From an uncultured virus (IMG/VR IMGVR_UViG_3300028797_000153) (Duplodnaviria; Heunggongvirae; Uroviricota; Caudoviricetes): DNA of 20,000 nt. Location of the stretch: IMG/VR virus record IMGVR_UViG_3300028797_000153. The stretch is one strand, 5' to 3'. The position numbers and the translations under genes were made by a program. Positions 1,614-20,000 of the stretch are shown one piece after another (within the stretch, counting starts at the first letter, position 1; every line of letters begins with the position of its first letter). The notes below the pieces were generated by a model. The model was not told the origin of the DNA, did not search any database, and worked only from the letters and a program-made list of their open reading frames with translations.

Positions 1614-2123
1614 ATGTCTGATACACCAAATAACTATGGCATATTATTAAATAAAAATATTAAATTGCATAGAAACTGGTTTAAGCAAATGACAAAGCTT
1701 ATCGGTATCAACTGCATTTATAAAGCTCCACTACCTGGAAAACATTTTGACACACATGGTGATTTAGATGCTGACTACTTCCCAGGAAAATTAGTTGGCT
1801 GCATTTTTCAAGATCATCCAGACCAAAAAACATTAAAGAAAATGGGATGGGTCGCTGAATTACAAGAAGGCTCATCTGTTATCCATGTTCCATATGATTT
1901 ACCAGATTTACAAGTAGGCGCGCTTTTTATCGTACCTAGCGGAATAGACAATGCACAAGGCCGTGTTTTCCGTGTAATTAGTATGCAAAATATTATGGTT
2001 TATCCTGCTTCTATTGCCTGTGAAATTGCTCCTGAATATATTGATGATGTTGAACCAGTACTAACAAGAGACTTTGAAGATACTAATTTTACAATGCTTG
2101 TAGACCATGAGGAGGATGACTAA
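1614..2123 (+). CDS. Neck / head-closure protein (T4 gp14-like)
   Basis: GGGAGG RBS upstream; motifs 'LIGINCIY', 'TLKKMGW', 'PDLQVGALF' resemble the gp14/head-closure pattern (G..v.Y ... L.kfG ... P..GDLI); position before tail genes. Confidence 0.6.
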   Translation: MSDTPNNYGILLNKNIKLHRNWFKQMTKLIGINCIYKAPLPGKHFDTHGDLDADYFPGKLVGCIFQDHPDQKTLKKMGWVAELQEGSSVIHVPYDLPDLQVGALFIVPSGIDNAQGRVFRVISMQNIMVYPASIACEIAPEYIDDVEPVLTRDFEDTNFTMLVDHEEDD

Positions 2124-2124
2124 T

Positions 2125-3909
2125 ATGAATAAATTTATATTAAGTGAATTAGCCTCAAAGTTTATTTTAGCTGAAAAGTATATTTTAACTGAAGCGACTG
2201 CTGAAGAAAAAAATAAAGCTAAAGAAGCATATTTAAAAGCTAAGGATGCCTTTAATAAAATATATCCAAATGCAAAAACTTTCCTAGAAGAAGCAAACGG
2301 CTCTAAAGAATTAACTACTGATGAAAAGTTTATTAATGAAATTAAACCATTAGAAAAAGAAATTGCTGCTGGAACTATTACTGATGTTCTTGATTTAAAG
2401 AATAAAGGCAAAGAATATATTGATAAAGTATCAGCCAAACTAGATAAAATCCCAAACTTTGAAGAAAAATACCCACAAATTGACCAACTAGTTTTTGATA
2501 TTAAAAACCTTATTGAAAAAGGTAAAGATGAAGATATTAAAGGTAGACTTGGTAGTGAGGTTGAAAAACTTGGTGCAACTGTTGATGAAGTTTTTGGTAG
2601 CAGTGAAAAAGCTGATGCTGATAAAACAGTTAGCGAAAATGCATTAAAAAATCTTAATAATATAAATGATTTTGACATTTCTGCAGCATTAGAAGCTATG
2701 GATAATGGTGATGAAAAAGATGAATTAGCCAATGCTGTATATGGTGAATTAGGAAATATTACTACTATATTAACTGATATTACTAAAACTATTACTGATG
2801 CTGTTGGTAAAAAAGATACATCTGATGCTGCTTTAGCAGCTTTAAATGATGCACTTACTGACGCATATGATAAATTAAAAGAAAATAAAAAAGCCGCATC
2901 ATTAGCAGATTTAAGTAATAAAAATAAGAGTGCTGAGGAAAGTGAAGATGCTGCACACCTTATAGACCTATTAAAAGCTGCAAAGAATGATCCAAAAGCA
3001 TTTGAAGCTGCACTTATGTCAATATTAAAATTAGCTTTTGGTTCTAATGATGACCTAATTAACGCTATTTTAAAATTAAATGTTGATGGTGCTATTGCTG
3101 ATGAAATTATACATTATGGCCCAGATGCTAAACAAAATCCATTTTTATATTTCTTAGATAAAAACCAAGATTTATTAAAAAATGGTAGTATAACGCCTGA
3201 AAAATATAAGATAATTCATAATGCTTTTGTTAAAGGTAATGCTTCTGGAGTATTTGGTGATGCTGATTTAAGAGGTACTGGTAGATTTGGAAACTCTGAT
3301 ATTATTTTTAGCGGTTCACTTTATGACTATGGCCCAGATGATATTACTAAGTACTTTAATTTAAGGGAACAAGTAATTAACCTATTTAATGGCTCAACAA
3401 AATTTAGTAATGATTTATTAGCTGAAAAATATCAAAATAATATTAAAAACTTCTTTGCTGATTTAATGTATGAAGGCGGCGATTTATTTAACCCAAAAGG
3501 TAGTGCTGCTGGACCTTCTGCAAATAGACAACTTAAAGGACTTAAAGCAATTGAAGATGAATTAAAAAATTGTTTTGATGAAGAAGCACTTAAAAATAGC
3601 AAACCAAAAGGAACAACAGCTGTTAATGAAAAAGTTGTTAAAAGCTGGATTGAATCTCTTGGTGGTGATAAGAGAAAAGTTGGTCAACTTATCATCTACT
3701 TAGCAACAAGATTTGTTTCTGCTTCAAGTGCAAAAGCTGTTCAAGAACTTTTGGATAAATATGCCGAAACAAGAAAAGTCCCGCTTGATGCTGCTAATAT
3801 TGTACCACTTAGTACAACAATTGGGAAACCTGATATTACAGATAAAAATCTTGCTGATGTAATTAAACAGATTGCAGAAGCAGCAGGACTAGAAGGTGCT
3901 GGAGCTTAG
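2125..3909 (+). CDS. Hypothetical 594-aa helical protein, candidate internal head (ejection) protein
   Basis: GGAGG at 2111-2115 supports ATG 2125 rather than 2107; Ala/Lys/Asp/Glu-rich; N-terminus MNKFILSELASKFILAEKYILTEA; ends TAG. Confidence 0.6.
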   Translation: MNKFILSELASKFILAEKYILTEATAEEKNKAKEAYLKAKDAFNKIYPNAKTFLEEANGSKELTTDEKFINEIKPLEKEIAAGTITDVLDLKNKGKEYIDKVSAKLDKIPNFEEKYPQIDQLVFDIKNLIEKGKDEDIKGRLGSEVEKLGATVDEVFGSSEKADADKTVSENALKNLNNINDFDISAALEAMDNGDEKDELANAVYGELGNITTILTDITKTITDAVGKKDTSDAALAALNDALTDAYDKLKENKKAASLADLSNKNKSAEESEDAAHLIDLLKAAKNDPKAFEAALMSILKLAFGSNDDLINAILKLNVDGAIADEIIHYGPDAKQNPFLYFLDKNQDLLKNGSITPEKYKIIHNAFVKGNASGVFGDADLRGTGRFGNSDIIFSGSLYDYGPDDITKYFNLREQVINLFNGSTKFSNDLLAEKYQNNIKNFFADLMYEGGDLFNPKGSAAGPSANRQLKGLKAIEDELKNCFDEEALKNSKPKGTTAVNEKVVKSWIESLGGDKRKVGQLIIYLATRFVSASSAKAVQELLDKYAETRKVPLDAANIVPLSTTIGKPDITDKNLADVIKQIAEAAGLEGAGA

Positions 3910-3912
3910 TTT

Positions 3913-4242
3913 ATGTTATTTATTGCACAAAGCCATAAATATACACCAAAAGGACTTGTTAAAATAAAGATAAAAAGAATTGCTAAATATCATGTCTACC
4001 ATTGAAAATTATCTGGAAATGATATAGCAGTTGATAATTATTGTAAACAAAAATATAATAAATCATTAAAAGAAGTTTGTTGATATATTATTGATAAAAT
4101 AAAAGTATTTATAAGCAATGATGAAAATCAATATATTATAATACTTGAAGATAAAAATTTAGATAAGCTTGCCCATATAATCACTTATGGTAATGGTGAA
4201 ATTGGTGGAAGTCAAATATTACAAAAAGCATTTATATTCTAA
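3913..4242 (+). CDS. 109-aa putative neck/tail-completion protein (2 in-frame TGA; missing from ORF track)
   Basis: GGAG RBS at 3901, ATG 3913, TGA at 4003 and 4081, TAA 4240-4242; fills the gap exactly. C-terminus 'LAHIITYGNGEIGGSQILQKAF' resembles the (L/I)(E/T)YG motif of phage neck/tail-completion proteins. Confidence 0.7.
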
Positions 4243-4260
4243 GAAAGGGAGTAATCAAAT

Positions 4261-4938
4261 ATGGCAATAAGATATTATGATGATGCTATTATAAAAAAAT
4301 TACTACGCTGGGTACCAGAAAACCAGGGCCTACGTGTTTTAAAGCCAGATGAAACAAAAAGATTATTTGAAATAATTGCTGATGATACTAATGACAAACC
4401 AATTAGACTTCCATTCATTGCCCTTTCAAGAAATACAGATATTGAACTATTATCAAACATTAAACAAAACAAATCTTTTGATGGTTTATGATTAAATAAC
4501 AACAAACTTGACCTCAATAATAGAGTAATTGAAGAAAGTTCAAGCACAACAATATTCAATGTTATTCCAATTCTTCCACAATATCAACTAGATATTTATA
4601 CTAAAACTTATGAAGAAGCGGATGAATTATTAAGAAATATACTATTTAAATTAATTAATAATCCTGCAATTTATATTTCAATTCCTTATAATGGACAAAA
4701 TATAACGCACATTGCAAATATCAGAGTTTTAAGTGGTTTAGCTGATAATAGTGGTATTAATGAGCGTATATTTTCTGGCCAATTTACTAGATGAACAATA
4801 CAGCTTGAAATTCATGACGCCTTCCTATTCAGCATACCATATAGAAATAACTGAAGAATTGGTGAAAGTGCCCTCGAAGTGTCTGAAAAAATGGACTTAG
4901 ATGGCGAAATTGAAGTTGCATATAGCAATAAAAATTAA
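4261..4938 (+). CDS. Putative tail terminator / tail-completion protein, 225 aa (3 in-frame TGA)
   Basis: ORF 4261..4491 continues in frame through TGA 4489, 4792 and 4852 to TAA 4936-4938; 'LPFIALSR', 'PQYQLDIYTKTYEEADELLRNILFKL' match the tail-terminator pattern; lies immediately before the sheath. Confidence 0.75.
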
Positions 4939-4960
4939 TTAAAAGCAATTTAATAAATAT

Positions 4961-4975
4961 GCTAAATTAATTGAG
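4961..4975 (+). promoter_or_regulatory. Candidate late promoter motif GCTAAATTA (copy 1, upstream of sheath)
   Basis: GCTAAATTAATTGAG; the same 9-mer occurs in four intergenic positions. Confidence 0.6.
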
Positions 4976-5031
4976 TTATGAAAATATTATAACTTTTTAG
5001 AGACAGAAGTTAACAATAAGGAGAAATACAC

Positions 5032-6687
5032 ATGCCACAAATTGTTATTAGAGAACATGATAAAACAAAAGCCGGCCTTGGTACCTACTCAAATTTTTCT
5101 GTTTTAATTCCAGGATTTATCAGTTCAACTGCAGTTGCTACTGATTTATGGGATGATAACGATATTCTTGAGTTAAATAACCAAGCTGATTTTGAAAAAT
5201 ATATTGGCAAAGTTGCTGCTGATGTAAATCCACAAACTGCTGAAGCACCTGTATTCACATATCCAGAAGCATGGAGGGTGGAAGAAAAAGATGGTGACGT
5301 CGTTACCGCAGTTACATATAACATTACAGGAAAATTAACTGCTGATGAATTTTATGGAACATTCGGTGGAAGAGTTTATGAAAAAGTAGCTTGGGAAGCT
5401 GGTATAACACCATATGATGGTGAATTAGCTGTTGCAGCCACTGCTGAAGATGAAGTTGAAACTGATCCAGAAACAGGCGTTGTAACTACACATAAAGGAG
5501 CCGAACAAGGCCGTTATGTTAAAAGAACACAAGGTTGGAATGCAAATACAAACTATTGTATTATTGAGCCAGAAAATATTGGCCGTGATGCAAGAAGCGT
5601 TACACCACAAATTGGTAACCAAATTGCTTATGAATTATTAGGATTAGGTTATACTGTATTATATAAGAAAATTATTGCTGAAAATATTGCATTTAGTAAT
5701 AATGATGAAGAGTCAAGTGGCATTCAAATGTCAGAATATGATTTCTGGAGACCATTTGAAGATAAAGCAACCTATGATTTCAGATATGTAGTTACTGGAT
5801 TCTGCGGTGAAGATGATACTCAACCATATAAAGATGTTAATAGCAGAATTAGTGAATTAGCAAATGCTCGTGGCGATTGTATTGCTCTTGTTGATATTCC
5901 AAAAGAAGTTTATAAAACATACAGTAGCTGGAAATCCGATGTTATTGCTTATGCTAATGCATTAAGTAATGCTAATAAGTATACAGCTTTATTTATGCCA
6001 GTTGTTACATATGACATGAATAGTGATGCAACATATCAAAATGATACATTCCCAGCATACTTCCATTATTTACTTTGTGCAAGTGATGCATTTGTTAACT
6101 ATCCAGAATGGTTTGCTGTTGCTGGATATACTCGTGGTATTTCTTCTGTCTATAATATTAAGAGCACACAAATTAAACTTGGTGATGCTGCAATTAATGC
6201 ACTTGAACCAAGAAGCACAAGTGGTACTGGCAGATTAACAAAGGCTATCAATGTTGTTGCAAATATTAAAGGTACTTACTATTTATGGGGCAATAGAACT
6301 GCTCACTTACTTGGTACAACTGGTGATCCTGTTAATGGTGATCTTGTTGCAAGCCACTTCTTAAATATTAGACAACTTTGTACTACATTAAAGAAACAAC
6401 TTTATGTTGCATGCCGTAAGTTCACATTTGATCCAAATAGTGATACATTATGGGCAAACTTCTGTAATGCAATTACACCAACCCTTGATAAAATGAAAGC
6501 AAATCAAGGTATTGATGATTATAAAATTATCAAAGTTCCAACAGATACTAAAGCATTATTACAAGCTAAGATTAGAATTGTTCCAATTGAAGCTGTTGAA
6601 GATTTTGAAATTGACTTATACTTAGAAGATTCAATTTCTGGTGCTGATGTTGAAATTGATGAAGGAACTGTTGGTACAAATAACTAA
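5032..6687 (+). CDS. Contractile tail sheath protein
   Basis: AAGGAG RBS; 'RGDCIALVD', 'WFAVAGYTRG', 'LWGNRT', 'FLNIRQL', 'FTFDPNSDTLW', 'IVPIEAVEDFEI' are typical sheath C-terminal motifs. Confidence 0.93.
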   Translation: MPQIVIREHDKTKAGLGTYSNFSVLIPGFISSTAVATDLWDDNDILELNNQADFEKYIGKVAADVNPQTAEAPVFTYPEAWRVEEKDGDVVTAVTYNITGKLTADEFYGTFGGRVYEKVAWEAGITPYDGELAVAATAEDEVETDPETGVVTTHKGAEQGRYVKRTQGWNANTNYCIIEPENIGRDARSVTPQIGNQIAYELLGLGYTVLYKKIIAENIAFSNNDEESSGIQMSEYDFWRPFEDKATYDFRYVVTGFCGEDDTQPYKDVNSRISELANARGDCIALVDIPKEVYKTYSSWKSDVIAYANALSNANKYTALFMPVVTYDMNSDATYQNDTFPAYFHYLLCASDAFVNYPEWFAVAGYTRGISSVYNIKSTQIKLGDAAINALEPRSTSGTGRLTKAINVVANIKGTYYLWGNRTAHLLGTTGDPVNGDLVASHFLNIRQLCTTLKKQLYVACRKFTFDPNSDTLWANFCNAITPTLDKMKANQGIDDYKIIKVPTDTKALLQAKIRIVPIEAVEDFEIDLYLEDSISGADVEIDEGTVGTNN

Positions 6688-6707
6688 GGTAAAGGAGAAA
6701 ATAAATT

Positions 6708-7301
6708 ATGGCAAATTACGAACCAAGTTTATCAGGACAACACATTAGCTCAAATCTTGCTAATTATGAAGCAGCAAGAACTGGCTTCTTCTCATTCTTA
6801 GTAAATGATATCGACAATATTATCAGAGCAACTTATACTGGTGATAGAACAAAAGATATTCCAGCAAGTGATAAAATTGCAAATGCTCAACAATATCTTA
6901 AATTAAACGTTGTTAAAGCAGATGTCCCACACTTTAGCTTAGAACCATTACAATACAAACGTGGTAATGACACAATCAAGTTTGCTGGTACTCCAACATT
7001 TGATGCTGGTACAATTACAGTTGATGATGTCATTGGACTTGATACTAAATCAATCTTAATGGCATGGCAAGCACTTGCTTATGATGTATACTCACGTCGT
7101 GGTGGAAGAATGGTTGACTATAAGAAAGATTGTACTCTTATTGAATACACCCAAGATTTCCAACAAATTAGAAGCTGGAAGTTATATGGCTGCTGGATTT
7201 CTGATTTAAGTGAAGATGCATTTGATAAAGAAAATGATGGCAAACGTCAAATTTCTGCAACTATTCAATATGATAGAGCTGAAATGATTATGCCTCAATA
7301 G
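6708..7301 (+). CDS. Tail tube protein (T4 gp19-like)
   Basis: AAGGAG RBS; follows sheath; 'IKFAGTPTF', 'DYKKDCTLIEY', 'WKLYGCWIS', 'TIQYD' motifs. Confidence 0.9.
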   Translation: MANYEPSLSGQHISSNLANYEAARTGFFSFLVNDIDNIIRATYTGDRTKDIPASDKIANAQQYLKLNVVKADVPHFSLEPLQYKRGNDTIKFAGTPTFDAGTITVDDVIGLDTKSILMAWQALAYDVYSRRGGRMVDYKKDCTLIEYTQDFQQIRSWKLYGCWISDLSEDAFDKENDGKRQISATIQYDRAEMIMPQ

Positions 7302-7324
7302 TTATCAGCAAAATAACTTAATAT

Positions 7325-7357
7325 AAAAGGTTAAGCAAAGCTTAATCTTTTTATTTT
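7325..7357 (+). terminator. Intrinsic terminator after sheath-tube operon
   Basis: AAAAGGTTAAGC-aaa-GCTTAATCTTTT (12-bp stem with one G-U pair) running into TATTTT. Confidence 0.8.
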
Positions 7358-7366
7358 ACAAAATAG

Positions 7367-7388
7367 ATTTAATAAAAATTTAATAAAA
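7367..7388 (+). repeat. Tandem 11-bp direct repeat ATTTAATAAAA x2
   Basis: Exact copies at 7367-7377 and 7378-7388, upstream of the RHH gene promoter motif. Confidence 0.5.
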
Positions 7389-7405
7389 ATAAAAGCAATA
7401 AAATT

Positions 7406-7420
7406 GCTAAATTATATAGA
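7406..7420 (+). promoter_or_regulatory. Candidate late promoter motif GCTAAATTA (copy 2)
   Basis: GCTAAATTATATAGA, downstream of the terminator and upstream of RHH/chaperone genes. Confidence 0.6.
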
Positions 7421-7445
7421 AACTTGAAAGGAATAAAGTTGTAAT

Positions 7446-7607
7446 ATGGGAAGGATTAAATTAGACAGAAGCAACAAAGTAATGCAATCTTTTGAATCAT
7501 CTAAACCGCTTAAAGAACGACTTGAAAAAATTGCTCAAAAGAAAAATATTACTGTGTCTGCTTTAATCAGACAAATCTTAGAAAACTATATTGAAGAAAG
7601 GAATTAA
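7446..7607 (+). CDS. Ribbon-helix-helix (CopG/Arc-like) DNA-binding protein, 53 aa (missing from ORF track)
   Basis: MGRIKLDRSNKVMQSFESSKPLKERLEKIAQKKNITVSALIRQILENYIEERN*; 'L..IA.K.NITVSALIR.IL..Y' is the RHH helix pattern; GAAAGGA upstream. Confidence 0.8.
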   Translation: MGRIKLDRSNKVMQSFESSKPLKERLEKIAQKKNITVSALIRQILENYIEERN

Positions 7608-7608
7608 T

Positions 7609-8379
7609 ATGGAAATGGAGAGACAAGAAAATTACACAATTATGGAAGGTTATGAATTACCTTCTAAGGGCCTTATTTATGACAAAAAGGTCAATCCACA
7701 TGTTGAATTAAGAAGCATGACTGCAAGGGATGAAATGAAACGTTTATCCCCATCATCTACACCATTCAAAACACTTGCTGACATTATTGAAGGCTGCTTA
7801 ATTGAAAAGCCAGCAGTTCATGTTTATGATATGGCTATTGGTGATTATGAATATTTATTACATAAGTTAAGAATTGTTACTTATGGTGATGAATATAAAG
7901 TTGAATTACAATGTCCATTCTGTGGCGAAACATTTGATGCAATAACTCACTTAGAAGATATTGCTGTTAAAGATTTCGATCAAGAAAAATTTGAAAAACT
8001 TAGAAATTTAAAATTACCTAAGAGTGGTGATGATATTGTATTAAAATTCCAGACACCACATATTCTTGATGAAATTGATAGCAAAACACGTGAATATAAA
8101 CGTAAATATAAAGATGCTTCTATCAGTTTTGATCTATTAGCCATATTAATTTGTTCAATCGAGTCTGTTAATGGCGTTGAATATGCTGAGTATGATTTAG
8201 AAAACTATATTAATAAATTACCAGCTATGGATATGACAAAAATTATTAACACACTTGATGAGTTAAATAAATGCGTCGGTATCGAAAATGAATTACAAGT
8301 AACATGTAAACATTGTGGTGGCGACGTAAATACCTTTTTTCGCTTCGGGACCGAATTTTTTAGACCCTCAACTATCTAG
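7609..8379 (+). CDS. Tail/baseplate-hub assembly chaperone (T4 gp26-like), 256 aa
   Basis: GAAAGGA RBS before ATG 7609; 'YELPSKG', 'LRSMTARDE', 'DYEYLLHKLRIVTYG', two CxxC motifs (CPFC, CKHC), C-terminal 'EFFRP'; located between tube and tape measure. Confidence 0.8.
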   Translation: MEMERQENYTIMEGYELPSKGLIYDKKVNPHVELRSMTARDEMKRLSPSSTPFKTLADIIEGCLIEKPAVHVYDMAIGDYEYLLHKLRIVTYGDEYKVELQCPFCGETFDAITHLEDIAVKDFDQEKFEKLRNLKLPKSGDDIVLKFQTPHILDEIDSKTREYKRKYKDASISFDLLAILICSIESVNGVEYAEYDLENYINKLPAMDMTKIINTLDELNKCVGIENELQVTCKHCGGDVNTFFRFGTEFFRPSTI

Positions 8380-8584
8380 GGATGGTAAACCTTACGGTCC
8401 TAAAAGATTTAAGGAAATTATTAGGGAATGCTGGTATATAAGTGATAATTTACATACTAGCTATACAGATGTATTAGATTTAAGCTTTCAAGAAAGAGTT
8501 TATCTAATAGAATGTATTAATGAAAAGCAGGCAGCAACAAAAAAAGCTATTGACGAAATACAAGCAAAAAACAAGAGTAAATAG
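8330..8584 (+). CDS. Start-less ORF, probable frameshift extension of the chaperone (gpGT-like)
   Basis: +1 frame open from 8330 (after TAA 8327) to TAG 8582-8584 with no in-frame ATG/GTG/TTG; reads ...FLDPQLSRDGKPYGPKRFKEIIRECWYISDNLHTSYTDVLDLSFQERVYLIECINEKQAATKKAIDEIQAKNKSK*; overlaps two TTT TTT runs. Confidence 0.7.
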   Translation: MPFFASGPNFLDPQLSRDGKPYGPKRFKEIIRECWYISDNLHTSYTDVLDLSFQERVYLIECINEKQAATKKAIDEIQAKNKSK

Positions 8585-8598
8585 CTAAATTATACGAG
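8584..8598 (+). promoter_or_regulatory. Candidate late promoter motif GCTAAATTA (copy 3, upstream of tape measure)
   Basis: GCTAAATTATACGAG running into the GAGGT RBS. Confidence 0.55.
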
Positions 8599-8606
8599 GT
8601 ATTTTT

Positions 8607-10705
8607 ATGGATGCAATAACAGAGTATGAGGCAAAGTTAAAAGAATCTAATTCAAAACTTAGCGCTTATGAGTTTGAAATGGAAGATAAGCTTTATAAGC
8701 TACGCCTTCAAATACAGAAAAACTTGCAGAAGCTAAGGCAAAATATGACACTGCTGGATATGATAAGATAGCCAAGCTCGGTTTATTAGCAACCAAAAAA
8801 GATTTAGAAAATGCTCAGAAAGCTGCCCATGCTGCCGCTGAATTAAAATACCGTGAAGAACGTGGTATAAAAGGCAAGCTTTCAAAAGAAGATAAGAAAG
8901 CATTAGCTGCACAATTTGCTGAGCAAGATGCTAACTTAACTAAAAAATATAAAAAAGAATCTAAATTAGCAGACCAAATACATAAGCAAGCACAAAAGAA
9001 TATTGCTGCTGAAAATGCACAAAGAGCTGCTGGTGCCTTAAAAGAAGGTTTATTTGGCAGCGGAAAATCAATGGCTGAAAGAAAACAAGCCTTATATGAT
9101 GCTTTCCACCAAAATAAAGATGGCAGTAAAAATACTCTTGCTGGTTTAGCAACATTAACAAATGCTTTATCTGACTTAACAAAACAATTAGATAGTAGTA
9201 TTGAAGAAATTGCCAAACAAAAAGGTGCTATTGATACACGTTTACAAGGCTCTGGTTTAAAAAGGAGACTTGGTTCATATTGGGATGCTATAAGTAATGA
9301 CATTATTGGTGTAGCAGGTGTTTCGCCATTAGTTAGACAATCCGATGTTGTTAAAAATGTTGGCACAATGGTTGATGCAGGTATTGCATATAACGTTGAA
9401 CAACGTGCTTTTTTACAAACAATTAAAGATAAAATTGCAACTACATTTGATGCTAATAATGGTACACTTTTAAGATTAGTTCGTATTCAACAACAAGATT
9501 CCACAGCTGCTCGTTTAGGCATGGAGTCTGCAATGAACTCATTCTTAAATAATATGTATGAAAATACAGAATATTTAAAAGGTGTTGCAACTGCTGTTAA
9601 GAGCAACTTAGAAGAAGCTATGTCATTAATGTCTGCAACTGATGCTGTAAGCTTTGAATATCAAGTCCAAAAATGGATGGGTTCATTATACTCTGTTGGT
9701 ATGTCCCAAGGTGCTGTTCAAGGTTTAGCAGGTGTCGTTGGTAAATTAGCTGCTGGTGATATTTCAGGTATTACTGGTGGTGGACAAGGAAACTTATTAG
9801 TTATGGCTGCAAATAAAGCTAATCTTTCACTTGCAGATATGTTAGCTAATGGTTTAAATGATTCTGATACAAATAGATTATTAGATGCAATGGTTGACTA
9901 CTTAGCACAAATTGCTAATGACTCTAAAAATAGTAGAGTAGTTCAACAACAAATTGCTAATGTTTATGGATTAACTGCATCTGATTTAAAAGCTGCCACA
10001 ACACTATCTAAATCAAGAAAAGCTGTTGCAGGTGAATATTTAAGCTATAATGGTGCTCTTGCTCAATTAACAAGTATGGCAAGCAGTATGTATAGCCGTA
10101 CAAGTATTGGTGAAATGATGACCAATGTTTGGGATAACTTTAAATATACAATGGCTGGTGGTATTGCTTCTAACCTTCCACTTTATGCACTATATAAAGG
10201 TGCTGGACTACTAGATTCAATTGCTGGTGGTATTAACTTACCAGATATTAAAGTTATGGGTTCAGGCGTCAACTTACAAACAACTGTTGCTGACTTAATG
10301 AGGGTTACTGCTTTATCTGGTAGTATCTTATCTGGTATTGGCCAAATGATTGCTAATGCAGGTGCTGGAGGCGGCTTTAATCCTGTTGGCATGCTAAAAG
10401 CTATGGGTATTACTACTGTATCACGTGGCGGACGCACAACTGTTAGAGGCGCAAGTACATCTGAATCAGGTACTGTTGGTAATGCTTCTGGTGATGATGC
10501 ATATAACCAAACAATGGCTGGCGCTGAAGATACTCAAAAGAGCAAGATGGCTGAAGCAAAAGAAGATGAAGAACAAGATGTTGCAAATAAAGTAATTAAT
10601 TCTAATGTTATCTTAATTCTTGAAGAGCTTAGAAAGATTACCGGACAAACTGTAACACTTAGAGTTTCAACTGGTACAGATAGAAGAAACGGCTTTATTG
10701 ATTAA
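8607..10705 (+). CDS. Tape measure protein (about 699 aa) with a -1 frame break near 8710-8723
   Basis: GAGGT RBS + ATG 8607 opens a helical ORF that stops at TAG 8769; the frame of ORF 9071..10705 is open from 8699 with no ATG until 9071. Ala/Gly/Leu-rich helical sequence in the canonical position after tube and chaperone. Confidence 0.75.
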
Positions 10706-10718
10706 GGAGGATATAGTA

Positions 10719-12233
10719 ATGATACAATTTAACTCAGACCATATTATTGTTGGACAAATAAAGCAATTACTACATTCTTTTAACTTACCAACCTATCGTG
10801 TTTATACAAAAGAACAAAGGCAATATTATGAAAAAACTGGCCAAGAATTAAATGTAATTTCTTCTGTCCCAATTATAACAGGTTCTACAAATATTCCTGA
10901 TCATGTAAGATATATTGATTATATTAAAGATAATAAAATTCAACGTTATTATGCTGAAACAACAATCGTAAATGGCACTGCAGTAGTTAAAGCACCAAGC
11001 TGGCATGAAACAGGTAAAACATATTATTATAATAAAAAAGAATTAAATAGAACTAAAAATTTAAAAATTACTAATAATATTTATGATACTTATACTCATG
11101 AATATTTAGGAAATTACTTAAGATTTCAACGTGATTATAATGGTATCAATTTAATGCCATTCTACAACTGCTTTAGTAATAATATTGTTTCATCATCTTT
11201 AAAATATGAAATACAAACAAGTGGCATTGCTGCTGATGAAGCTGGATATAGCACAAAAATAATTAGTACATTTGATACAAGTAATGATAAGTATAAAATT
11301 TATATGGTACCTGTAAAGGCATTCCAAACATATACTATCGCTGTTGATAGTGCTGATGGACTTGAGCTTTGTTGTGGTATCTATGATAAATACAGTGATA
11401 CTCGTGAAAAATTAGCACATATTCCATCACTTACATACCTTAATGTAAAATCTGCTTCATTTAATCACCCATTTTTATATGACAAATTATTAGACATTAC
11501 AAATAGTATGTCTGAGGAAAGTAATGCGGAGTTAGCCACTATTGAAAAAAATCTAAAGCTTTTTATCAAATTACCTGCTGAAAATAAGTCAACAATTGTA
11601 ATTTTGGAAGGAAATTATTGTAGTTGAAATGATAAATCTGTGTATGAAGAAATTTCAAGTAGTGGCCAAACAAAAATGCAATATACTAATTTTGCTCAAA
11701 CAAATATTTATAATAATCATATTGTAAATAACTATGAAAAAAATACTAGCTCAATATTTGATACCTATCCAGATTTTAATGAAAGAAATATGCAATTTAT
11801 TACTGCACTACAATTACTGTTATTAAACACTGGCCAACAATATCCATTTTCTGATAAGCTAATTGAATTTTTAACTGATAATGTAATTAATCCATTAGAT
11901 ACTATTTCTGATAATATTAAACGTGCTCAAACAGTTATAAAAGAAAATAATAATGAAATAGATGTTGATGGTATTTGGTCTGGAGAAATGCAAGCAATTT
12001 TATATGACTTTGTAAATTCAAAAACAAGCTTAAATAATATTACTTCTAGTGATAGAGTAGATTGTATAGGCTATGGCGACAAAGTTGTTGAAAAAGCTTA
12101 TAAGAGTACCAAAATTACTACCACACGAGTTGGTGATAAAACAAAAAGAACCAGGGAAGTTATTAATACTCTTAATGATATTAATCTTTATGAAAGTACA
12201 TATAAAAATAATTATAAAGGAGGAAGTAAATAA
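10719..12233 (+). CDS. Hypothetical tail/baseplate-associated protein, 504 aa (1 in-frame TGA)
   Basis: GGAGG at 10706 supports ATG 10719; ORFs 10698..11627 and 11640..12233 share a frame and are separated only by TGA 11625 (ILEGNYCS-W-NDKSVYEE). Confidence 0.75.
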
Positions 12234-12235
12234 CT

Positions 12236-12871
12236 ATGCCAACAAATATAATTGATGAGCCATATCCAACCGATACTTACCCTTTTCCTGATAACTATAT
12301 TTATATTTCACACTTAGATGAAGGATTAAAATTCTGGCGTATTCCATGCTGGCCAGATGCAATTTCTGATACTATGCAATCTAACTTTGCAACAACAACT
12401 GCTTTAGGTCGTTCTGCGCCTGTTTACACATTTAGTAATGCCGGCCCAAGAACTGTCCAAATAACTATTGCTTTGCATAGGGATATTATGGACGATGTTA
12501 ATACTGGTGTTAGTAATTCTGAACTTGCTATGGGTGAAGATTATATTGATAATTTAGTAAATGCTTTAAGAGCTATTGCTGTTCCAAGATACAATCTTTC
12601 AAATAAAGCTGTTGAACCACCCCTTGTTGCACTTAGACTTGGGCGTGAAGTTTTTATTAAAGGTGTTGTTACAAGTGGCATAGGTATTGATTTTACTAAA
12701 CCAATTCTAAAAAATGATAGATATGCACAAGTTAATTTATCATTAGCAATTTCTGAAGTTGACCCATATGACGCAACATCTGTTTATCAAAATGGTGGAT
12801 TTAGAGGTGTCGTTCAAACATTTAAAGGAAGTCACCCAACTCAAAATGGTATTGATGGTATGGGCTTATAG
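12236..12871 (+). CDS. Baseplate tail-tube initiator-like protein
   Basis: AGGAGG RBS; 'PDAISDT..SNF..TTALGRSAPVYTFSNAGPRTVQITI' and 'PPLVALRLG..FIKGVVTS' fit the tube-initiator family; synteny. Confidence 0.7.
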   Translation: MPTNIIDEPYPTDTYPFPDNYIYISHLDEGLKFWRIPCWPDAISDTMQSNFATTTALGRSAPVYTFSNAGPRTVQITIALHRDIMDDVNTGVSNSELAMGEDYIDNLVNALRAIAVPRYNLSNKAVEPPLVALRLGREVFIKGVVTSGIGIDFTKPILKNDRYAQVNLSLAISEVDPYDATSVYQNGGFRGVVQTFKGSHPTQNGIDGMGL

Positions 12872-12883
12872 GAGGTATAATTT

Positions 12884-13213
12884 ATGGATACACTAAAAGA
12901 TAAAAAATATAATAGCTTTGATTATACTTGTCGCTATACAGACGTCCCATATTATTATAATATAAAAGATAAAAAATATATTTATGGAATTGGCAGTAAC
13001 TTAAATAAACAAACTGCTTATATTGCCCATAAAGTAAAAGAAACTGATACTCTTGATTATCTTGCTTTAAAATACTATAATAACCCAACTTTCTGGTGGA
13101 TTATTGCTTATTTTAATGATATTCAAGATGCATTTATTAAATTAAGTGATAAATATAGTGTACTTAATATTCCTAGTATATCTAGTATTCAATTTGGAGC
13201 TGAAAGAGAATAA
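12884..13213 (+). CDS. LysM-like baseplate wedge protein (T4 gp53 / P2 gpX-like)
   Basis: GGAGG RBS; 'HKVKETDTLDYLALKYYNNPTFWWIIAYFNDI...LNIP'. Confidence 0.85.
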   Translation: MDTLKDKKYNSFDYTCRYTDVPYYYNIKDKKYIYGIGSNLNKQTAYIAHKVKETDTLDYLALKYYNNPTFWWIIAYFNDIQDAFIKLSDKYSVLNIPSISSIQFGAERE

Positions 13214-14535
13214 TGGCAACATTAAAATTTTCTGAACAACGTAGATCATTACTATCAAGCCAGGCAAGAGTACAAGCACCATGAGTTAAAGTAACTATTG
13301 GTACTTTTACTTTTGGTGTTTTTTCAAAGGCAGAAGCTAATAGTAAAAATTCGCAGGGATTTTATACAGCCGGTGCTTACAGCATTCAGTATCCAAATTA
13401 TATTCAATCATTAACTATTACAAAAATTAATGGCCAAGTAAACCAATATACATTAAATATTACTTACCCTGTAAAACAAACAGATGACCCTAACTTTTTT
13501 GAAAAGGTATTTAGCAGTGTAAGCAAAACCCGTGAAATTATATTTAGCTATGGTGATGCAACAATGCCATCATATATCTATAAAGATGAAAAAGCTATTA
13601 TTACAAGTATTCAACAATCTTTTAATCTACAAAGCTCAAGTATTTCATATGTAGTTAATGCTGTTTCTGGTGCCGCTCTTGGGACATCAAGTTGCTTTAC
13701 TTTTATGGCAACAACTAAAAAACCAAGTGATGAAATTAAAAGAATTATAATGGCAAAACAATATGGTTTAAGAGACCTTTTTACTGGCATTACAGACAAT
13801 AATATTAATACATTAATTGCAGGTGATGACCAAGTTGTTTCATTAGCATCTAAAACAAATATTTCAGCTTTAGATTATATTAATTATTTAGTTAGTTGCA
13901 TGATTCCTATCGGCTCAAGTAAAGATAACAGAAGCAAAGATATTTATGTTTTAACTTTACATGATGACACTTCTTATGATAGAATTTATGCTGATCGTGA
14001 AACTATTGAAGGTCGTGAAATTGTTGGACCATACTGCAAAGTAACTAAAATGTCATATACAACAAAACAAAGTGATGCATTTGAGCTTGATATTGGTTAT
14101 AATACTTCAACTATTGTTACAAATTTCCAAATAAGCCAAAATGAAAACTATGCTTTATACTATGACTACAATAAAAAATTACTACCAGAAGAATATGTTA
14201 GAAGAATTAATGATAATGGTAAATGGGAAGATGTTTTTGCTCCAACAAGTACATCAAGAAATAGCACACATGCAACTTGGCCAGATGATATTACTTGATG
14301 GACAAAAATTACAAAATATCCAATTAGTGCAACAGTAACAATTCAAGGCTTACTCAGACCAGCCACACTTATGACTTATCTTAGACTAAATGTTATTTTT
14401 CCTGGTGGCCATAGACATATTAGTTCTGGCTTATACCTAATTACAAAACAAGTTGATACTATTGATGGTAATGGCTATAGAACACAATTATCACTAACAA
14501 AACTTTCAGGTGATGAATCAGACTTAGGAGTATAA
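13213..14535 (+). CDS. Baseplate hub protein (gp27/gpD-like), 440 aa (2 in-frame TGA)
   Basis: TAATG stop/start overlap at 13211-13215; same frame as ORF 13564..14298; TGA at 13282 and 14296; TAA 14533-14535; C-terminus 'ATVTIQG...SGLYLITKQVDTIDGNGYRTQLSL' is hub-like. Confidence 0.8.
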
Positions 14536-14539
14536 TTTA

Positions 14540-15382
14540 ATGCTAACAAAAGGTGAAATTCAAAGTATAGATTTTACAGGCAATTCTTGTAGAATAAGAA
14601 TACCTCTTTTTGAAGTAGCTGGTATTGAAGATAAGGTATATGCTACCGCTTATTTTGCTGTTGAGCCTGGAAAATATAATAGCTATAAACCTGGTGATGT
14701 TGTCATTATTGGTTTTGAATCAGACCTCATTGATAAGCCAATTATCTTAGGAAAGCTTTATACAAGTATTAATGAAGACCAGCTTGATGATAATGGCTAC
14801 CGTGGAAGTATTGATTGTACTAGCTTAAAAGTTAAAGAAAATGCTTCAATTCCAATTAGTACAAAAATAATTAAAAATGCATTAAGTGTTAAAGATGATG
14901 CTGCAACTACAACTATTAATGATATTATTAATACTATAAATACCAATAAAACGGATATTGAAAACATTAAGAAAAATCTTGATATAACTAATGATAATTT
15001 AAATTATAATGAACAATTACTTTGGGAAAATCCTGCACCAAATAGTGCTTTTGCTGCACAAGATATTGCACTAAATATGGATTATACTAAATTTAAATAT
15101 ATAGTTATTTTTTATAGATTTTACTTTGGCAATTGTGTTGAGCAAAGCCTGAAAATTATTCCACCAAATATTGTAGATAATATTATGGACAGTCATAATC
15201 AAACATTTATAACTGGTGGAAACTATGCAAATGACTGAGCCAGCCGCCAAATTGACTTTATTGACAGAACACATCTTAAAGTATATACTGGTAAAAGAGT
15301 GGATGCAAATAACCCAACTAGTGGTACAAATAGAACTGAATTCTGTATTCCAACTAAAATATATGGTGTAAATAACCTATAA
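14540..15382 (+). CDS. Baseplate spike-like protein (gp5/gpV OB-fold N-terminus) with fibre-type C-terminal domain, 280 aa (1 in-frame TGA)
   Basis: AGGAG RBS; 'CRIRIP', 'PGDVVIIGFE...KPIILG' OB-fold motifs; continues through TGA 15236 to 'FCIPTKIYGVNNL*' (TAA 15380-15382). Confidence 0.75.
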
Positions 15383-15422
15383 ATTTAATAAATTTTTAAT
15401 AGATAAAAAGTATATAAAAATT

Positions 15423-15438
15423 GCTAAATTATACTGAG
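15423..15438 (+). promoter_or_regulatory. Candidate late promoter motif GCTAAATTA (copy 4, upstream of wedge genes)
   Basis: GCTAAATTATACTGAG running into the GAGGAG RBS. Confidence 0.6.
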
Positions 15439-15448
15439 GAGCCAATGT

Positions 15449-15838
15449 ATGACATCAATAAAATTCCCAAATATGTTTAATACAAATAGCACAAATGTAT
15501 GAAAAAGTAGTGAACATAATGAAGCCACTACTCAGAATACAATTATTTTATTACACTGTGAGCGTGGTGAACTTTTTGATGACCCATACTTCGGGTTAAT
15601 GTTAAGGCACTATATGTTTGACCAAAATAACTATGTGCTTCGTGATGCAATTGCTGATATGGTTTATACTCAACTTGCATTATTTATTCCTCAAGTACAT
15701 GTTAAACGTGAAGATATTAGAATTATTCAAAATAAACAAAAAGGAAAATTATATTGTGTATTTAAAGGTATAAATCAAATTGACTATAAAACTAATACAT
15801 TTAATTTGACTTTATTTGAAAATACAGAAGCATTATAA
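15449..15838 (+). CDS. Baseplate wedge / sheath initiator (T4 gp25 / gpW-like), 129 aa (1 in-frame TGA)
   Basis: GAGGAG RBS, ATG 15449, TGA 15500; 'ILLHCERGELFDDPYFGLMLRHYMFD' is the gp25 signature and lies mostly upstream of the ORF-track start at 15599. Confidence 0.88.
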
Positions 15839-15853
15839 TAAGGAGACAGAAAA

Positions 15854-18800
15854 ATGATTACAGAAAAAGATTTAGAAGCTCTTGAGCTATCTCCAACTAA
15901 AAAAGATTTTTATCAAATTTGAAATGAGCTTTTAGAAACCGCTAAAAAAATATCTGCCAGATGGGATCCAACAAGTACAAATGAATCAGACCCTGGTATT
16001 GTTTTACTTAAAGTTTTAACTGGTATCGCTGATAAATTAAATTATAATATTGATAAAAATATTCTTGAAGCTTTTATGCCAAGTGCAACTCAACAAGATT
16101 CAATGCGTAAGCTTTGTGAACTTGCTGGTTATAATATTAAATATTATCAATCAGCTGAAATAAAAGTTAGAGTTGGTTGGGCAGGTTATACAAATAATGG
16201 TACTTTTACTATTGAAAAAAATGAATCTGCAGGTATTAAAAGTATTTTTATTCCTCAATTTTCTGTAATCAAAAATAATGATGAAGATATTGTCTACACT
16301 ACTACTGAAGGTGGCACTATTCAATCTAATATACCTGTTATCGAAATTAACTGTATTGAAGGTCAAGTTATTCAATGCTCACCTGATACTGATTATGTTA
16401 TTTCATTAGATAACTTAGATGATAATTTTAGATATTACTTACCAGAAGCTCAAATTGCTGAAAATGGTTTCTTTGTTTATAATATTAATAATGGAGCATA
16501 CCAAAAAAATGAGTGGTCAAAAGTTGATAACTTAAATACACAACCAACAAAAGCAAAAGTATATAAATTTGGCTTTGATTCACATTTAGGACTTCCATAT
16601 TTACAATTCCCAGAAGATGTTGGAAATATTATTGAAGATGGTTTATATATTTATTATACAAGAACTTTAGGTGTTAATGGTAATATTGCAGCAAGAACCC
16701 TTAGTAAAATTGAACTTGCTGATGGTGCAGATGAATATAATACTGATGCAAATAATTACACAGATTCAACTAATGATGTTTCTGCATATTACGAACTATT
16801 AAGCATTTCAAATGAAAATGCTGCTATGAATGGTGCCAATATTGAAACCATTACACAAGCATACAATAACTTTAAGAAAACTGTTGGTACATTTGACACA
16901 TTAGTTACTTGCCGTGATTATATGAACAAAATTTATCAATTATATGATGATTTAAATGTTCCACTAGTTTCTAATGTTATTGTTAGTGATATTCGTGATG
17001 ACCTTAATAGAGCATTTACACTTTGTACTTTTGACCAATATGGAATTAAATACACTGATACAAAGATGATTGATTCTACTACTAATAAAGAAAGAATTAC
17101 AAACTTTGATATTATTTTATACCCATTTAAAACAATATATGGTTTAAATAATGAACAAGAGTTTATTGATTCATTTAAATTTTCTGCTGCTAACTCTATA
17201 CTAATTGAAAGTGAATTAGACAGCTTAAAAACTATTTCACATAATATTATTATACCAAATGGAACAAGCACGGATATTTTATGTATTAAAAATTACTTTA
17301 AAATTAATGCAAAAATCACAACTACAACAAAAGTTAATGCCATTGAAGAAGCATATATTTTAGATAATATCTATAAAAATATTTATAAAACATTTAATGC
17401 TAGACAACTTGACTTTGGTGAAACTATCCCATTTGACTCTATCTTAGAATGTATTGAAACAGCTGATACAAGAATTAAAAACGTTTCTATGGAAGAGCCT
17501 ATAATTATTACAAAAGTTGCACTTATTGATGGTACTGAAATTGATATATCTGATATTACAAGTCAAGATAGTGGTAGCAGTGGTGCTGGTATTTATGCTG
17601 GCTTAGTTACTAAAAATATTTTAGCTGGAAGAGCACCATTATTTGATTATGATGAAACATTTAAACCAGAGCTTAGTGAATCAACTTATACAGGATTAGG
17701 TCAATATAATAAAATTACAAAAATTGAACCAATATGTGATTATAATCCACAAGCTGGCTCTTTAACTGCTAATGGTATACTAAAGAAAAATGAAATTATA
17801 CAATTTAGAGCACCTAGCTTAAAAACAACATTAACATATCCAGCATATGTTAACTATTTTGCAAAACTTAATACGGGTACTGCTGAAGATGCCCACCCAG
17901 CAACTATGAAAACAGTACTTAATTTTATGGATGAAACAGTTAGCGGTACTAATAACTGGGATGATTTATTAACGCATACATCAGATGATGTTTATACAAA
18001 TTTAATTGCTAAAAAGGTTCCTATTACATTTACAACTAGTGATGCTTTTACAGCTAACTTAGCAAATTATGGCTGTATTTTTAAACTTAATGATAGCAAT
18101 GTATTAGTTAAAGCAACAGTAGCAGATTGGCATGATGCATCTAGTCAATTCTATGTATTTCCAATTACATCTGATACATTTGTTGGCTGGACAATTTACA
18201 TTAAAACTACAGGCATTATGGAAAGCGGTGCCTTAAAAGCACGTACTGGTTTATATACAAGCTTAGGAGTTAACTTAAATAATCCGGCTGGAAAATTAGT
18301 TGATAGTGGACATAAAAAATATAGAATATGTAATATCCCAGATTCATTTACACAAGAAAGCTCACTTAAATACTATTTTGTACAAGATATGAGTGGCCCA
18401 AACCCAAGTGCAAATGATTATGGTATTGGTATAGATGCTACAGTTAGGGGCATACCAAAAAACTGTGAATATACACTTGGTGAAGGTGAATATATCTTAA
18501 TAAACTATACAAAAGCAGGTAGTAGCCAAGAAGATGGCTCTACAAGTGCTGATACAATTATTAATGAGGTACTTAGTAGTAGTGATGGTACTATTATTAA
18601 AACAAACTTTGATCTATATGACTCAAGTGTCTATAATAGTAGTTTATCACATAGTTTTTCAAAAACTACAGGCTTTGGTCCTTGGAATGGTTATTCAACA
18701 CCAGCTGGAATGTTTACACTCGGTCCAAATGAACAAATTGAAGTTAGAAAACCGGTTGCTATTACATTAGATTCTGGTAATAATAGCAGTAAAAATATTA

Positions 18801-20000
18801 ATATTTATTGGTTATTAAATAATAAAACTCAAAATGAAAGCTTCCCAATTTCTAATGATGGTTATACACTGCAAGAAAATGAATACTTCTTCTATACTGA
18901 TGAAAATAAACTTGAAATGTCATATTTTGGAAGTGGAACAAAAATAAAAATACAAGGCTTAATTCCTACTAAAAACATAAATACAAGTGATGTTTCAGCA
19001 GATGATATTATTGAAAAGGGAATTCTAGCAATACCTTGGGTACAAGTTTCTGTTAATAATACTGGAACGAGAAAAATTGATATTATAGAATACCAATATA
19101 TTACATTAGCTGAAGGTGATGCACTTAGCTCAATTAGCTTAATAGATAATAATACAGATGACCCTATAACAACTATTGGAGATCACTGATATGGATGTTC
19201 AGCTGCTACATATATTATTGATGGTGAATCAGGTGAATTACCAGCATTTAATAGTGATAGTTTAAGTTGGGAAGTACATAGTAAATTATTATTAAACGTT
19301 GGACCTGCTTTGACTCAAACATTAGCTGACTCAAGAGATTCTATTAAAATTAGATACACTCCAGATGGACAAACCACACCTACTACTAAAACTATTGCAT
19401 ATGAAGCTGGTGATGATGCAATTTCATTCAAAACTAACTATCTTTGCCAAAGTGGTAATGATATAATTTTAATTAATAATGATATAGATGATTTCAAACT
19501 TAAAGCATTTAAATCAAATACTTTAGAAACAACTTATATTAAAGCTGATACAGAAGAGTCTGTTACTGAAGCATTAACTACAAATAATTTTGGTAATTAT
19601 TGGACAAAACTTTCATTTGAAAAATGTGCCATAAATAATGATTCAACTACACAATTATATTGTAATATTAATAGTAGTGATCAATTTGGCATGCTTATGA
19701 TTTACCTTGTTAAAAAAGAAATTGACTATGCTAATGATGACTGGCCATATTTAACAATTGATAATGGTAGTTTAGCTATTTATAACTATCCAAATAGCTC
19801 TTCTGAAACATGGTGGACAAATGCTGCAGCCATTTATTCTGCAAGTATTACAGAGGATAGCCCACTTGATTGAGCAAATAAAACATATTATACACGCAGT
19901 GAATCTGCAAATAATATGCCAACTGCTAGTAGTTATGTTGATATTTATGGTTATAAATATACAGAGGCAGCTGAAGTTGACTATGATTCTAGTACTGTCT
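15854..20000 (+). CDS. Giant baseplate wedge protein (T4 gp6 / gpJ-like N-terminus), >1380 aa, 3' truncated (3 in-frame TGA)
   Basis: AGGAG RBS, ATG 15854; 'KDFYQI(W)NEL', 'NESDPGIVLL', 'DKLNYNID', 'AT...SMRKLCELAGY', 'LVTCRDY' are gp6/J motifs; TGA at 15920, 19187 and 19871 join ORFs 16076..19189 and 19310..19873 in one frame that stays open to the window end. Confidence 0.85.

Follow-up and report, generated by a model that had tools for sequence, protein, structure and literature searches.

Reassigned TGA codons are unevenly distributed in the tail module of a recoded jumbo phage from the cattle gut and are rare in the major virion genes of its relatives

The window analysed here, a stretch of 20,000 nucleotides from an uncultured member of the Caudoviricetes (IMG/VR record IMGVR_UViG_3300028797_000153), has a GC content of ~31% and carries all of its coding on the plus strand. 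It is the tail module of a ~273-kb jumbo myophage from the cattle gut, which is recoded from TGA to tryptophan (Trp) and belongs to a family that also includes standard-code members. The module encodes a tail sheath, tail tube, baseplate hub, gp25-like wedge protein and tail terminator, which together with a Gp23-type major capsid protein (MCP) encoded upstream form a T4-like contractile tail and head module with conserved gene order (Table 1). Gene calls are based on open reading frames (ORFs); under translation table 11 seven of the window genes are broken, whereas table 4 restores whole genes. TGA is unevenly distributed among these genes, and among the recoded relatives it is strongly depleted in the MCP, tube and sheath genes.

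The reading of TGA as Trp is supported by codon alignments with relatives. In the tail terminator gene, three conserved Trp columns are written with TGG by every standard-code relative and mostly with TGA by the recoded ones; the window sites 4792 and 4852 fall in columns that are TGG-encoded Trp in standard-code relatives, as do both TGAs of the gp27-like hub gene (13282 and 14296) in columns that are Trp in these relatives. Taken together, five of the 13 window TGAs align with Trp of standard-code relatives, three with TGA/TGG or aromatic residues, two with aliphatic or basic residues and one with Tyr/Phe; two were not judgeable and none aligns with Gly. The 15 complete window genes terminate with TAA (11) or TAG (4) and never with TGA, a stop codon that ends 23 of the 265 ORFs in standard-code relatives. 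Furthermore, coding coverage of G002, a recoded, deep-branching sister, amounts to 92% with TGA as a sense codon versus 68% without. On the evidence of these alignments, TGA is a Trp sense codon in the window phage. Adaptation to a host using code 4 or code 25 was considered and rejected, as TGA accounts for 23% of Trp codons in the window, TGA-free blocks are present in the relatives and none of the TGAs aligns to Gly.

An exact count over the 16 plus-strand ORFs gave 44 TGG and 13 TGA (23% A-ending), in close agreement with the hand count of about 45 and 13 on which the original prediction was built. The A/T bias at third positions noted there is reflected in the other A/G pairs, which are 87-97% A-ending (AAA/AAG 384/59, GAA/GAG 384/38, CAA/CAG 192/9, TTA/TTG 301/9, AGA/AGG 108/12), and TGA is much less frequent than this bias would predict. 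The sheath (TGG:TGA 9:0), tube (3:0) and tape measure (9071-10705; 3:0) genes write Trp exclusively as TGG, exactly as had been claimed, and the 13 in-frame TGAs are spread over seven other genes. Sheath and tube combined (12:0) differ from the remaining window genes (32:13) with a Fisher p=0.050, and inclusion of the tape measure (15:0 vs 29:13) gives p=0.013. These groupings were chosen post hoc, and the unevenness inside the window alone is borderline and suggestive, in line with the caution originally attached to such small counts (p 0.05-0.013).

Table 1. Genes of the 20,000-nucleotide window and their Trp codons (positions of in-frame TGAs are given where present; aa, amino acids)
Feature	Position	Strand	Assignment and Trp codons
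Acidic 846-aa protein, C-terminal part	2..1543	+	window part TGG 1, TGA 0; full gene is L177 9003-11543
169-aa conserved gene	1614..2123	+	TGG 2, TGA 0
600-aa gene	2107..3909	+	TGG 1, TGA 0; family searches gave no match
109-aa gene, family unassigned, upstream of tail terminator	3913..4242	+	TGA 4003, 4081; 0 TGG
Tail terminator (T4 gp15-like)	4261..4938	+	TGA 4489, 4792, 4852; 1 TGG
Tail sheath	5032..6687	+	phrog_23 1.3e-14; 9 TGG, 0 TGA
Tail tube	6708..7301	+	PF06841 29.3 bits (cut-off 28.2), phrog_4542; 3 TGG, 0 TGA
Baseplate hub protein, T4_baseplate family	7591..8379	+	PF12322 74.2 bits, phrog_150; without Trp codon
Tape measure-like gene	8607..10705	+	frames 8607-8771 and 8699-10705; 3 TGG, 0 TGA
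511-aa gene, family unassigned	10698..12233	+	TGA 11625; 2 TGG
211-aa gene, weakly tube-like	12236..12871	+	PF19266 E 0.0084, under cut-off; 2 TGG
109-aa baseplate wedge-like gene	12884..13213	+	phrog_7145 7.1e-9; 2 TGG
Baseplate hub (T4 gp27 / Mu gp44 / VgrG-like fold)	13213..14535	+	TGA 13282, 14296; 3 TGG
280-aa gene, central-spike position	14540..15382	+	label by gene order only; TGA 15236; 1 TGG
gp25-like baseplate wedge	15449..15838	+	phrog_261 5.6e-8; PF04965 under cut-off; TGA 15500
Large baseplate gene, runs off window	15854..19999	+	TGA 15920, 19187, 19871; 14 TGG

The window sheath protein was also found on a 273,303-bp contig, 20 kb of which (L177, retrieved with a 42-base probe) lie two substitutions and one base apart from the window and add 10 kb upstream, encoding a prohead protease, a Gp23-type MCP (PF07068 (Gp23), 94.6 bits), a 942-aa enzyme and a head-tail adaptor. 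The MCP gene is free of TGA (4:0), and the enzyme gene (L177 4571-7399, which lies 5.4-2.6 kb ahead of the first window position) contains 3 TGG and 17 TGA, equivalent to 85% TGA. This enzyme, encoded between the capsid and adaptor genes, is a fusion of FrhB-like, polysaccharide pyruvyl transferase and GT8-like parts; its gene has the lowest GC content (26%) and is split into two genes in G002 (1:11 and 1:6). Over the window and the upstream 10 kb, the capsid, sheath and tube genes contain 16:0 and the rest 44:33 (p=4.5e-4). A genome contig scan with the 942-aa enzyme, made with a view to the host, retrieved no relative. Three DNA runs labelled bovine gut metagenome contain 0.83-0.99 of the sampled words of the stretch and may include the run from which it derives, and two RNA runs contain 0.06-0.07 of them, which provides no evidence of expression.

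A sheath profile search of IMG/VR yielded 79 loci and, after the addition of complete or partial sequences of six relatives (completeness of G003-G006 93-100%, of G002 and G007 46%), 79 sources, which were collapsed into 55 clusters at 90% tube nucleotide identity. These comprise 27 recoded clusters (at least two in-frame TGAs in aligned regions), 22 standard-code clusters, a status that for short loci rests on few genes, and six ambiguous ones. Counts per gene exclude the window and cover the remaining 26 recoded lineages, and pooled tests ignore phylogeny. In these lineages, TGG:TGA is 19:0 in the MCP, 75:14 in the tube, 116:22 in the sheath and 10:2 in the protease gene, followed by the portal (17:10), adaptor (23:17), tape measure (29:28) and terminase (21:28) genes, the large baseplate gene (32:50), the hub (22:37), gp25-like (4:7) and terminator (19:41) genes, the 511-aa gene (15:33) and the 109-aa gene upstream of the terminator (3913..4242 in the window), in which Trp is written solely as TGA (0:5). 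The heterogeneity in TGA share among gene families is pronounced (chi-square 157, 18 degrees of freedom), and sheath, tube and MCP together (210:36) are separated from the rest (238:303) by an odds ratio of 7.4. A random distribution across genes, named originally as an outcome that would speak against the proposal, was thus not encountered when the relatives were examined by gene class. The tape measure does not follow the pattern seen in the window, as 49% of its Trp codons are TGA in the relatives compared to 3:0 in the window; avoidance of TGA, predicted for sheath, tube and tape measure, therefore holds in the relatives for the first two of these genes but not for the third.

The depletion is not confined to pooled counts. 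With codons left unpooled, the TGA share is lower in the bulk genes in 24 of 25 evaluable lineages, the exception being L085 (sign test p 1.5e-6). A capsid profile scan recovered 60 loci, and in the 59 in which the gene was found, the MCP contains 224 TGG and no TGA; in the 13 clearly recoded capsid loci, the MCP has 48:0 and the flanking ORFs 300:312. TGA-free homing endonuclease genes (GIY-YIG, HNH) adjoin the MCP gene in G002 (L006 4162-5610) and in G004 (L147 4445-5857, minus strand), and other G004 homing endonucleases are wholly TGA-coded (0:6, 0:5). Avoidance of TGA in high-copy virion proteins, as originally proposed, is clade-wide. The borderline tests inside the window would also be expected if a few TGAs were scattered at random following a recent code change, but the repetition of the pattern in 24 of 25 lineages makes chance extremely improbable, and a young reassignment is difficult to reconcile with a gene of the window genome at 85% TGA and with a recoded sister, G002, whose sheath is just 58% identical to that of the window.

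The avoidance is specific to the recoded codon and does not reflect a general preference of bulk genes for G-ending codons: comparison of the bulk with the other gene class gave odds ratios of 0.3-1.8 for the Lys, Glu, Gln, Leu (TTR) and Arg (AGR) pairs and of 7.3 for Trp. As an independent proxy for translational selection and expression, we used the extent to which six two-fold pyrimidine codons favour NNC rather than NNT, which is 0.54 in the MCP, 0.27 in the tube and 0.12-0.14 in baseplate genes. Across gene families, the TGA share declines with this proxy (rho -0.66, n=16, p 0.006), and the relationship is retained when the proxy is taken from standard-code relatives (rho -0.58, n=13, p 0.036). 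Of the 26 recoded lineages, 13 have one or more TGAs in the sheath and 7 in the tube; sheath genes without TGA were observed in 12 lineages compared to a binomial expectation of 10.0, indicating graded avoidance.

In the genomes of these six relatives, TGA makes up 17% to 49% of Trp codons overall. In 10-kb bins of G004 and G005, blocks of large structural genes reach a share of 0.7-0.85, compared to 0.02-0.2 where small genes prevail. G004 contains 46 TGA-free genes with at least three TGG, of which 45 were scanned; these encode the MCP, the tube, 17 proteins of DNA, RNA and nucleotide metabolism, four classified as 'other', seven from families of unknown function and 15 without a match. The TGA-rich set of the same genome (21 of 23 scanned) includes fibre-like and baseplate proteins, a pyruvyl transferase, endolysin, peptidase and homing endonucleases. 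Judged by the 10-kb bins and the G004 gene classes, early or replication genes of the relatives are free of in-frame TGA; the window contains late genes only.

The relatives also encode a toolkit for reading UGA. A tRNA search of the window found none, and tRNAs with the anticodon UCA were identified in G003, G005 and G006 but not in G004. Each of these tRNAs has an A1-U72 pair, the 3' end is ACCA in G006 and GCCA in the other two, and we take them to resemble bacterial tRNA-Trp. The G003 tRNA(UCA) (L121 201-296, minus strand) is 96 nucleotides long with a ~20-nucleotide insertion after the anticodon arm; that of G006 has the discriminator A73 rather than G73 and, at L175 1350-1425, lies 75 nucleotides upstream of the gene for tryptophanyl-tRNA synthetase (TrpRS). 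TrpRS is encoded by G004, G005 and G006, above the TIGR00233 cut-off, and in G004 it adjoins a gene for peptide chain release factor 1 (RF1), also above cut-off, after which follows a peptidase gene at 2:9. The tRNA(UCA), TrpRS and RF1 genes of the relatives contain no TGA, and the protein genes are open under table 11. When contigs were scanned for the host with RF1 of G004, matches at 34-52% identity came from 11 scattered taxa; this result is uninformative, the query patterns being arbitrary 8-mers. A tRNA-like element in G004 (RF00005, 40 bits) was rejected as a suppressor tRNA, as it lacks an anticodon arm; the neighbouring sequence resembles the c-di-GMP-I-GGC riboswitch below threshold (45 bits vs a gathering score of 59), the two features lying at L120 286-346 and 405-479. 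Furthermore, G004 contains a tmRNA beside a tRNA-Pro (L101 1091-1496; ARAGORN), and in G005 a Lon protease-like gene (L176 192-1415; TIGR00763 557 bits, under the 608 cut-off) is located directly upstream of TrpRS.

As the relatives carry their own kit for UGA decoding, we infer that the host most likely treats UGA as a stop, a reading to which the TGA-terminated ORFs of standard-code sister lineages lend indirect support. The portrayal of a recoded phage on a standard-code host in the original prediction is in agreement with the TGA-free tRNA(UCA), TrpRS and RF1 genes of the relatives, but the recent reassignment that it offered alongside is unlikely in view of the gene at 85% TGA and of G002. 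In low-copy late genes, the TGA share (40-85%) equals or falls short of the A-ending share of other pairs; mutation bias alone therefore explains the presence of TGA, and it is the retention of TGG, concentrated in the most-copied proteins and in replication genes, that requires an explanation. Overall, this pattern is probably best explained by selection that acts against a codon costly to read, the more strongly the more of the protein is made. UGA would most likely be read by a phage-supplied, Trp-like tRNA(UCA) with TrpRS and sometimes RF1, as in the relatives, and its decoding would set in late and be imperfect owing to a shortage of suppressor tRNA and to competition by the RF2 of the host. 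Mutation towards AT would drive TGG to TGA everywhere, and purifying selection in proportion to the number of copies needed would retain TGG in the genes for the major capsid, tube and sheath proteins. In the relatives, TGG would be retained also in replication genes, which would be needed before the code switch, and low-copy late genes (terminator, baseplate, fibres, terminase, lysis, enzyme) would drift to the mutational default.

Several observations weigh against this explanation. The pooled statistics ignore kinship, which weakens it, and the complete absence of TGA from the MCP (0/52) is equally compatible with an all-or-none rule. Tube genes without TGA were found in 18 lineages versus 13.9 expected, which represents some overdispersion. 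The +4 context, considered as a potential sign of RF2 avoidance, differs genome-wide between TGA and TGG (chi-square p 2e-12), a comparison that is confounded by gene class; within low-copy genes, T at +4 follows 15.5% of TGA and 20.1% of TGG codons, a depletion without significance (p 0.16), with A at +4 enriched. In addition, recoding is not accompanied by a spared capsid gene in every phage group, as discussed below for crAss-like phages.

Some of these observations could be accommodated by timing rather than abundance, with capsid, tube and sheath grouped with the replication genes, translated before the switch and strictly free of TGA. The TGA-free set of G004, which unites replication and nucleotide-metabolism genes with MCP and tube, is in line with such timing classes, as are the zero TGA in 59 of 59 MCP loci and the excess of TGA-free tube genes (18 vs 13.9). 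Strict exclusion, however, conflicts with TGA in the sheath of 13 and the tube of 7 of the 26 recoded lineages, and irrelevance of abundance with the graded relation to the codon-bias proxy over 16 families, which renders this alternative rather doubtful. Gene flow could produce a similar picture if conserved core genes recombined with those of co-occurring standard-code relatives and their Trp codons were thereby reset to TGG. Recoded and standard-code members are indeed interleaved on a quick sheath tree (30 rows), where well-supported branches force at least four state changes, and no gene is better conserved than the MCP, at 70-80% identity within the family. As conservation of the sheath does not exceed that of the terminator or hub, from which it nevertheless differs strongly in TGA share, and as the NNC bias of the MCP indicates translational selection, recombination is a quite improbable cause.

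Assignment of the tail genes that carry TGA was examined by family and fold searches. The terminator has a weak match to PF16724 (E 0.0029, under cut-off), and its predicted fold resembles T4 gp15 (4hud, E 1.2e-5) with a template modelling (TM) score of 0.43-0.46; the fold search gave 17 matches at E<=0.001, which include further tail terminators. For the hub encoded at 13213..14535, the best fold match is gp27 (2z6b_D, E 1.6e-10, TM ~0.4), obtained with a model of predicted local distance difference test score (pLDDT) 61. Comparison of the 280-aa protein at the central-spike position with VgrG was non-significant (E 0.058). The large baseplate gene has no family match and no PDB sequence match, the label 'gp6-like' being based on position only, and PDB sequence searches with the hub, spike-position and large baseplate proteins and two profiles returned nothing significant. 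The tape measure gene is split in the window by one missing T near 8707 (TTT to TT; window 8690-8720 vs L177 18690-18722), which may be a true frameshift variant or an error of sequencing or assembly; on L177 it is a single intact gene of ~700 aa, as also indicated by homology to G002. A 53-aa ORF between the tube and hub genes (7446-7607) has a BLAST match in 46 of the 79 sources, and its likeness to ribbon-helix-helix DNA-binding proteins is a by-eye impression only.

The original prediction went beyond codon avoidance and proposed a translational gate on virion assembly, in which low-copy proteins for initiation and joining retain TGA, so that bulk subunits are made first and tail nucleation and head joining await the suppressor tRNA. 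TGA does occur in the terminator, hub, gp25-like and large baseplate genes, both of the window and of nearly all recoded relatives (20 of 22 in the case of the terminator), the terminator and hub identities are backed by predicted folds, and capsid, tube and sheath are translatable without the switch. TGA is not, however, specifically placed in assembly-initiating genes, since it is the default (~40-85%) in nearly every low-copy late gene, including the terminase (21:28), fibre-like, endolysin and homing endonuclease genes and the enzyme (3:17). Its share in initiator genes (61-69%) does not exceed that of the terminase (57%), fibre-like genes, endolysin or the enzyme (85%) and remains under the A-ending share of other pairs in the relatives (83-95%), for which positive selection is unneeded. 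Moreover, the tape measure, itself a low-copy initiator, has 3:0 in the window and 49% TGA in the relatives, and sheath genes of 13 of 26 recoded lineages contain TGA. The positions of TGA and TGG within aligned regions differ by no N-terminal shift (p 0.82), and TGA is thus not concentrated near gene starts; the excess that raw ORFs display towards the N-terminus (14% in the first decile vs 6.9%) was dismissed, as it vanished in aligned regions and is likely an artefact of 5' over-extension. With graded avoidance in the sheath and TGA not placed early, the data do not specifically support a gate, and we regard it as unlikely. The same low likelihood applies to the stronger proposition of two late-gene registers, with bulk blocks in the universal code, low-copy packaging, nucleation, joining and lysis proteins written with UGA, and tRNA(UCA), TrpRS and RF1 acting as a selected assembly checkpoint. 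A gate may instead arise as a by-product of selection scaled to protein output, which would leave bulk subunits switch-independent and initiators switch-dependent.

In gut phages, stop-codon recoding is considered a means of timing late gene expression. Inside late modules, exclusion of the recoded codon from the virion proteins of greatest abundance is strong and recurrent, which suggests indirectly that UGA remains costly to read in a cell with the standard code and provides a measurable selection signature for modelling the spread of a new code through a genome. For annotation, it follows that a phage need not use the standard code because its capsid or sheath gene is free of TGA.

The closest known counterparts are the TGA-recoded 'Jade' phages and other alternatively coded phages from the animal gut described in a preprint by Borges et al. 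(bioRxiv 10.1101/2021.08.26.457843), with genomes of ~200+ kb and TGA read as Trp. In this account, such phages have close standard-code relatives, repeated code changes, recoded structural and lysis genes and a TGA-free 'code change module' (suppressor tRNA, TrpRS and RF1) beside the lysis genes; families preferring the recoded codon (lysis genes, a tail protein and an intron endonuclease) and its avoidance in an integrase were tested there. The 'Jade' phages and the family of the window are alike in size, gut origin, the reading of TGA as Trp and the TrpRS and RF1 module, a likeness that is drawn from description only. The terms 'capsid' and 'highly expressed' occur zero times in the preprint text consulted, in which abundance-graded avoidance within late modules is undescribed, and no description of it was found in the literature searched, which covered the preprint by its main text only. 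In crAss-like and Lak phages, as far as covered in the parts of PMC7886860 and PMC9523058 consulted, TAG is read as Gln in late genes by means of a phage suppressor tRNA in a standard-code host; the late-gene bias of a reassigned stop is thus shared with the window family, and the codon and amino acid differ. In the portion of PMC7886860 consulted, stops within the MCP, large terminase subunit (TerL) and portal genes of crAss-like phages serve as markers of recoding, so that the MCP is not spared and the pattern reported here is not universal.

The grading itself has parallels outside of recoded phages. Codon choice is classically known to track expression level in highly expressed genes, and the preference of the MCP for NNC (0.54 vs 0.12-0.27) is in agreement with such translational selection. 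Here, in contrast, the disfavoured codon is a stop codon of the host, and its presumed cost would be premature termination or stalling and not just slower decoding. Code-4 organisms such as Mycoplasma and Spiroplasma and their phages are AT-rich, read TGA as Trp and generally prefer TGA throughout, whereas in the window TGA makes up 23% of Trp codons; in the relatives, it is absent from whole blocks of the genome and the decoding machinery is phage-borne. The window phage and its relatives thus represent a known kind of system with a refinement, abundance-graded avoidance of the recoded codon, that is itself possibly undescribed.

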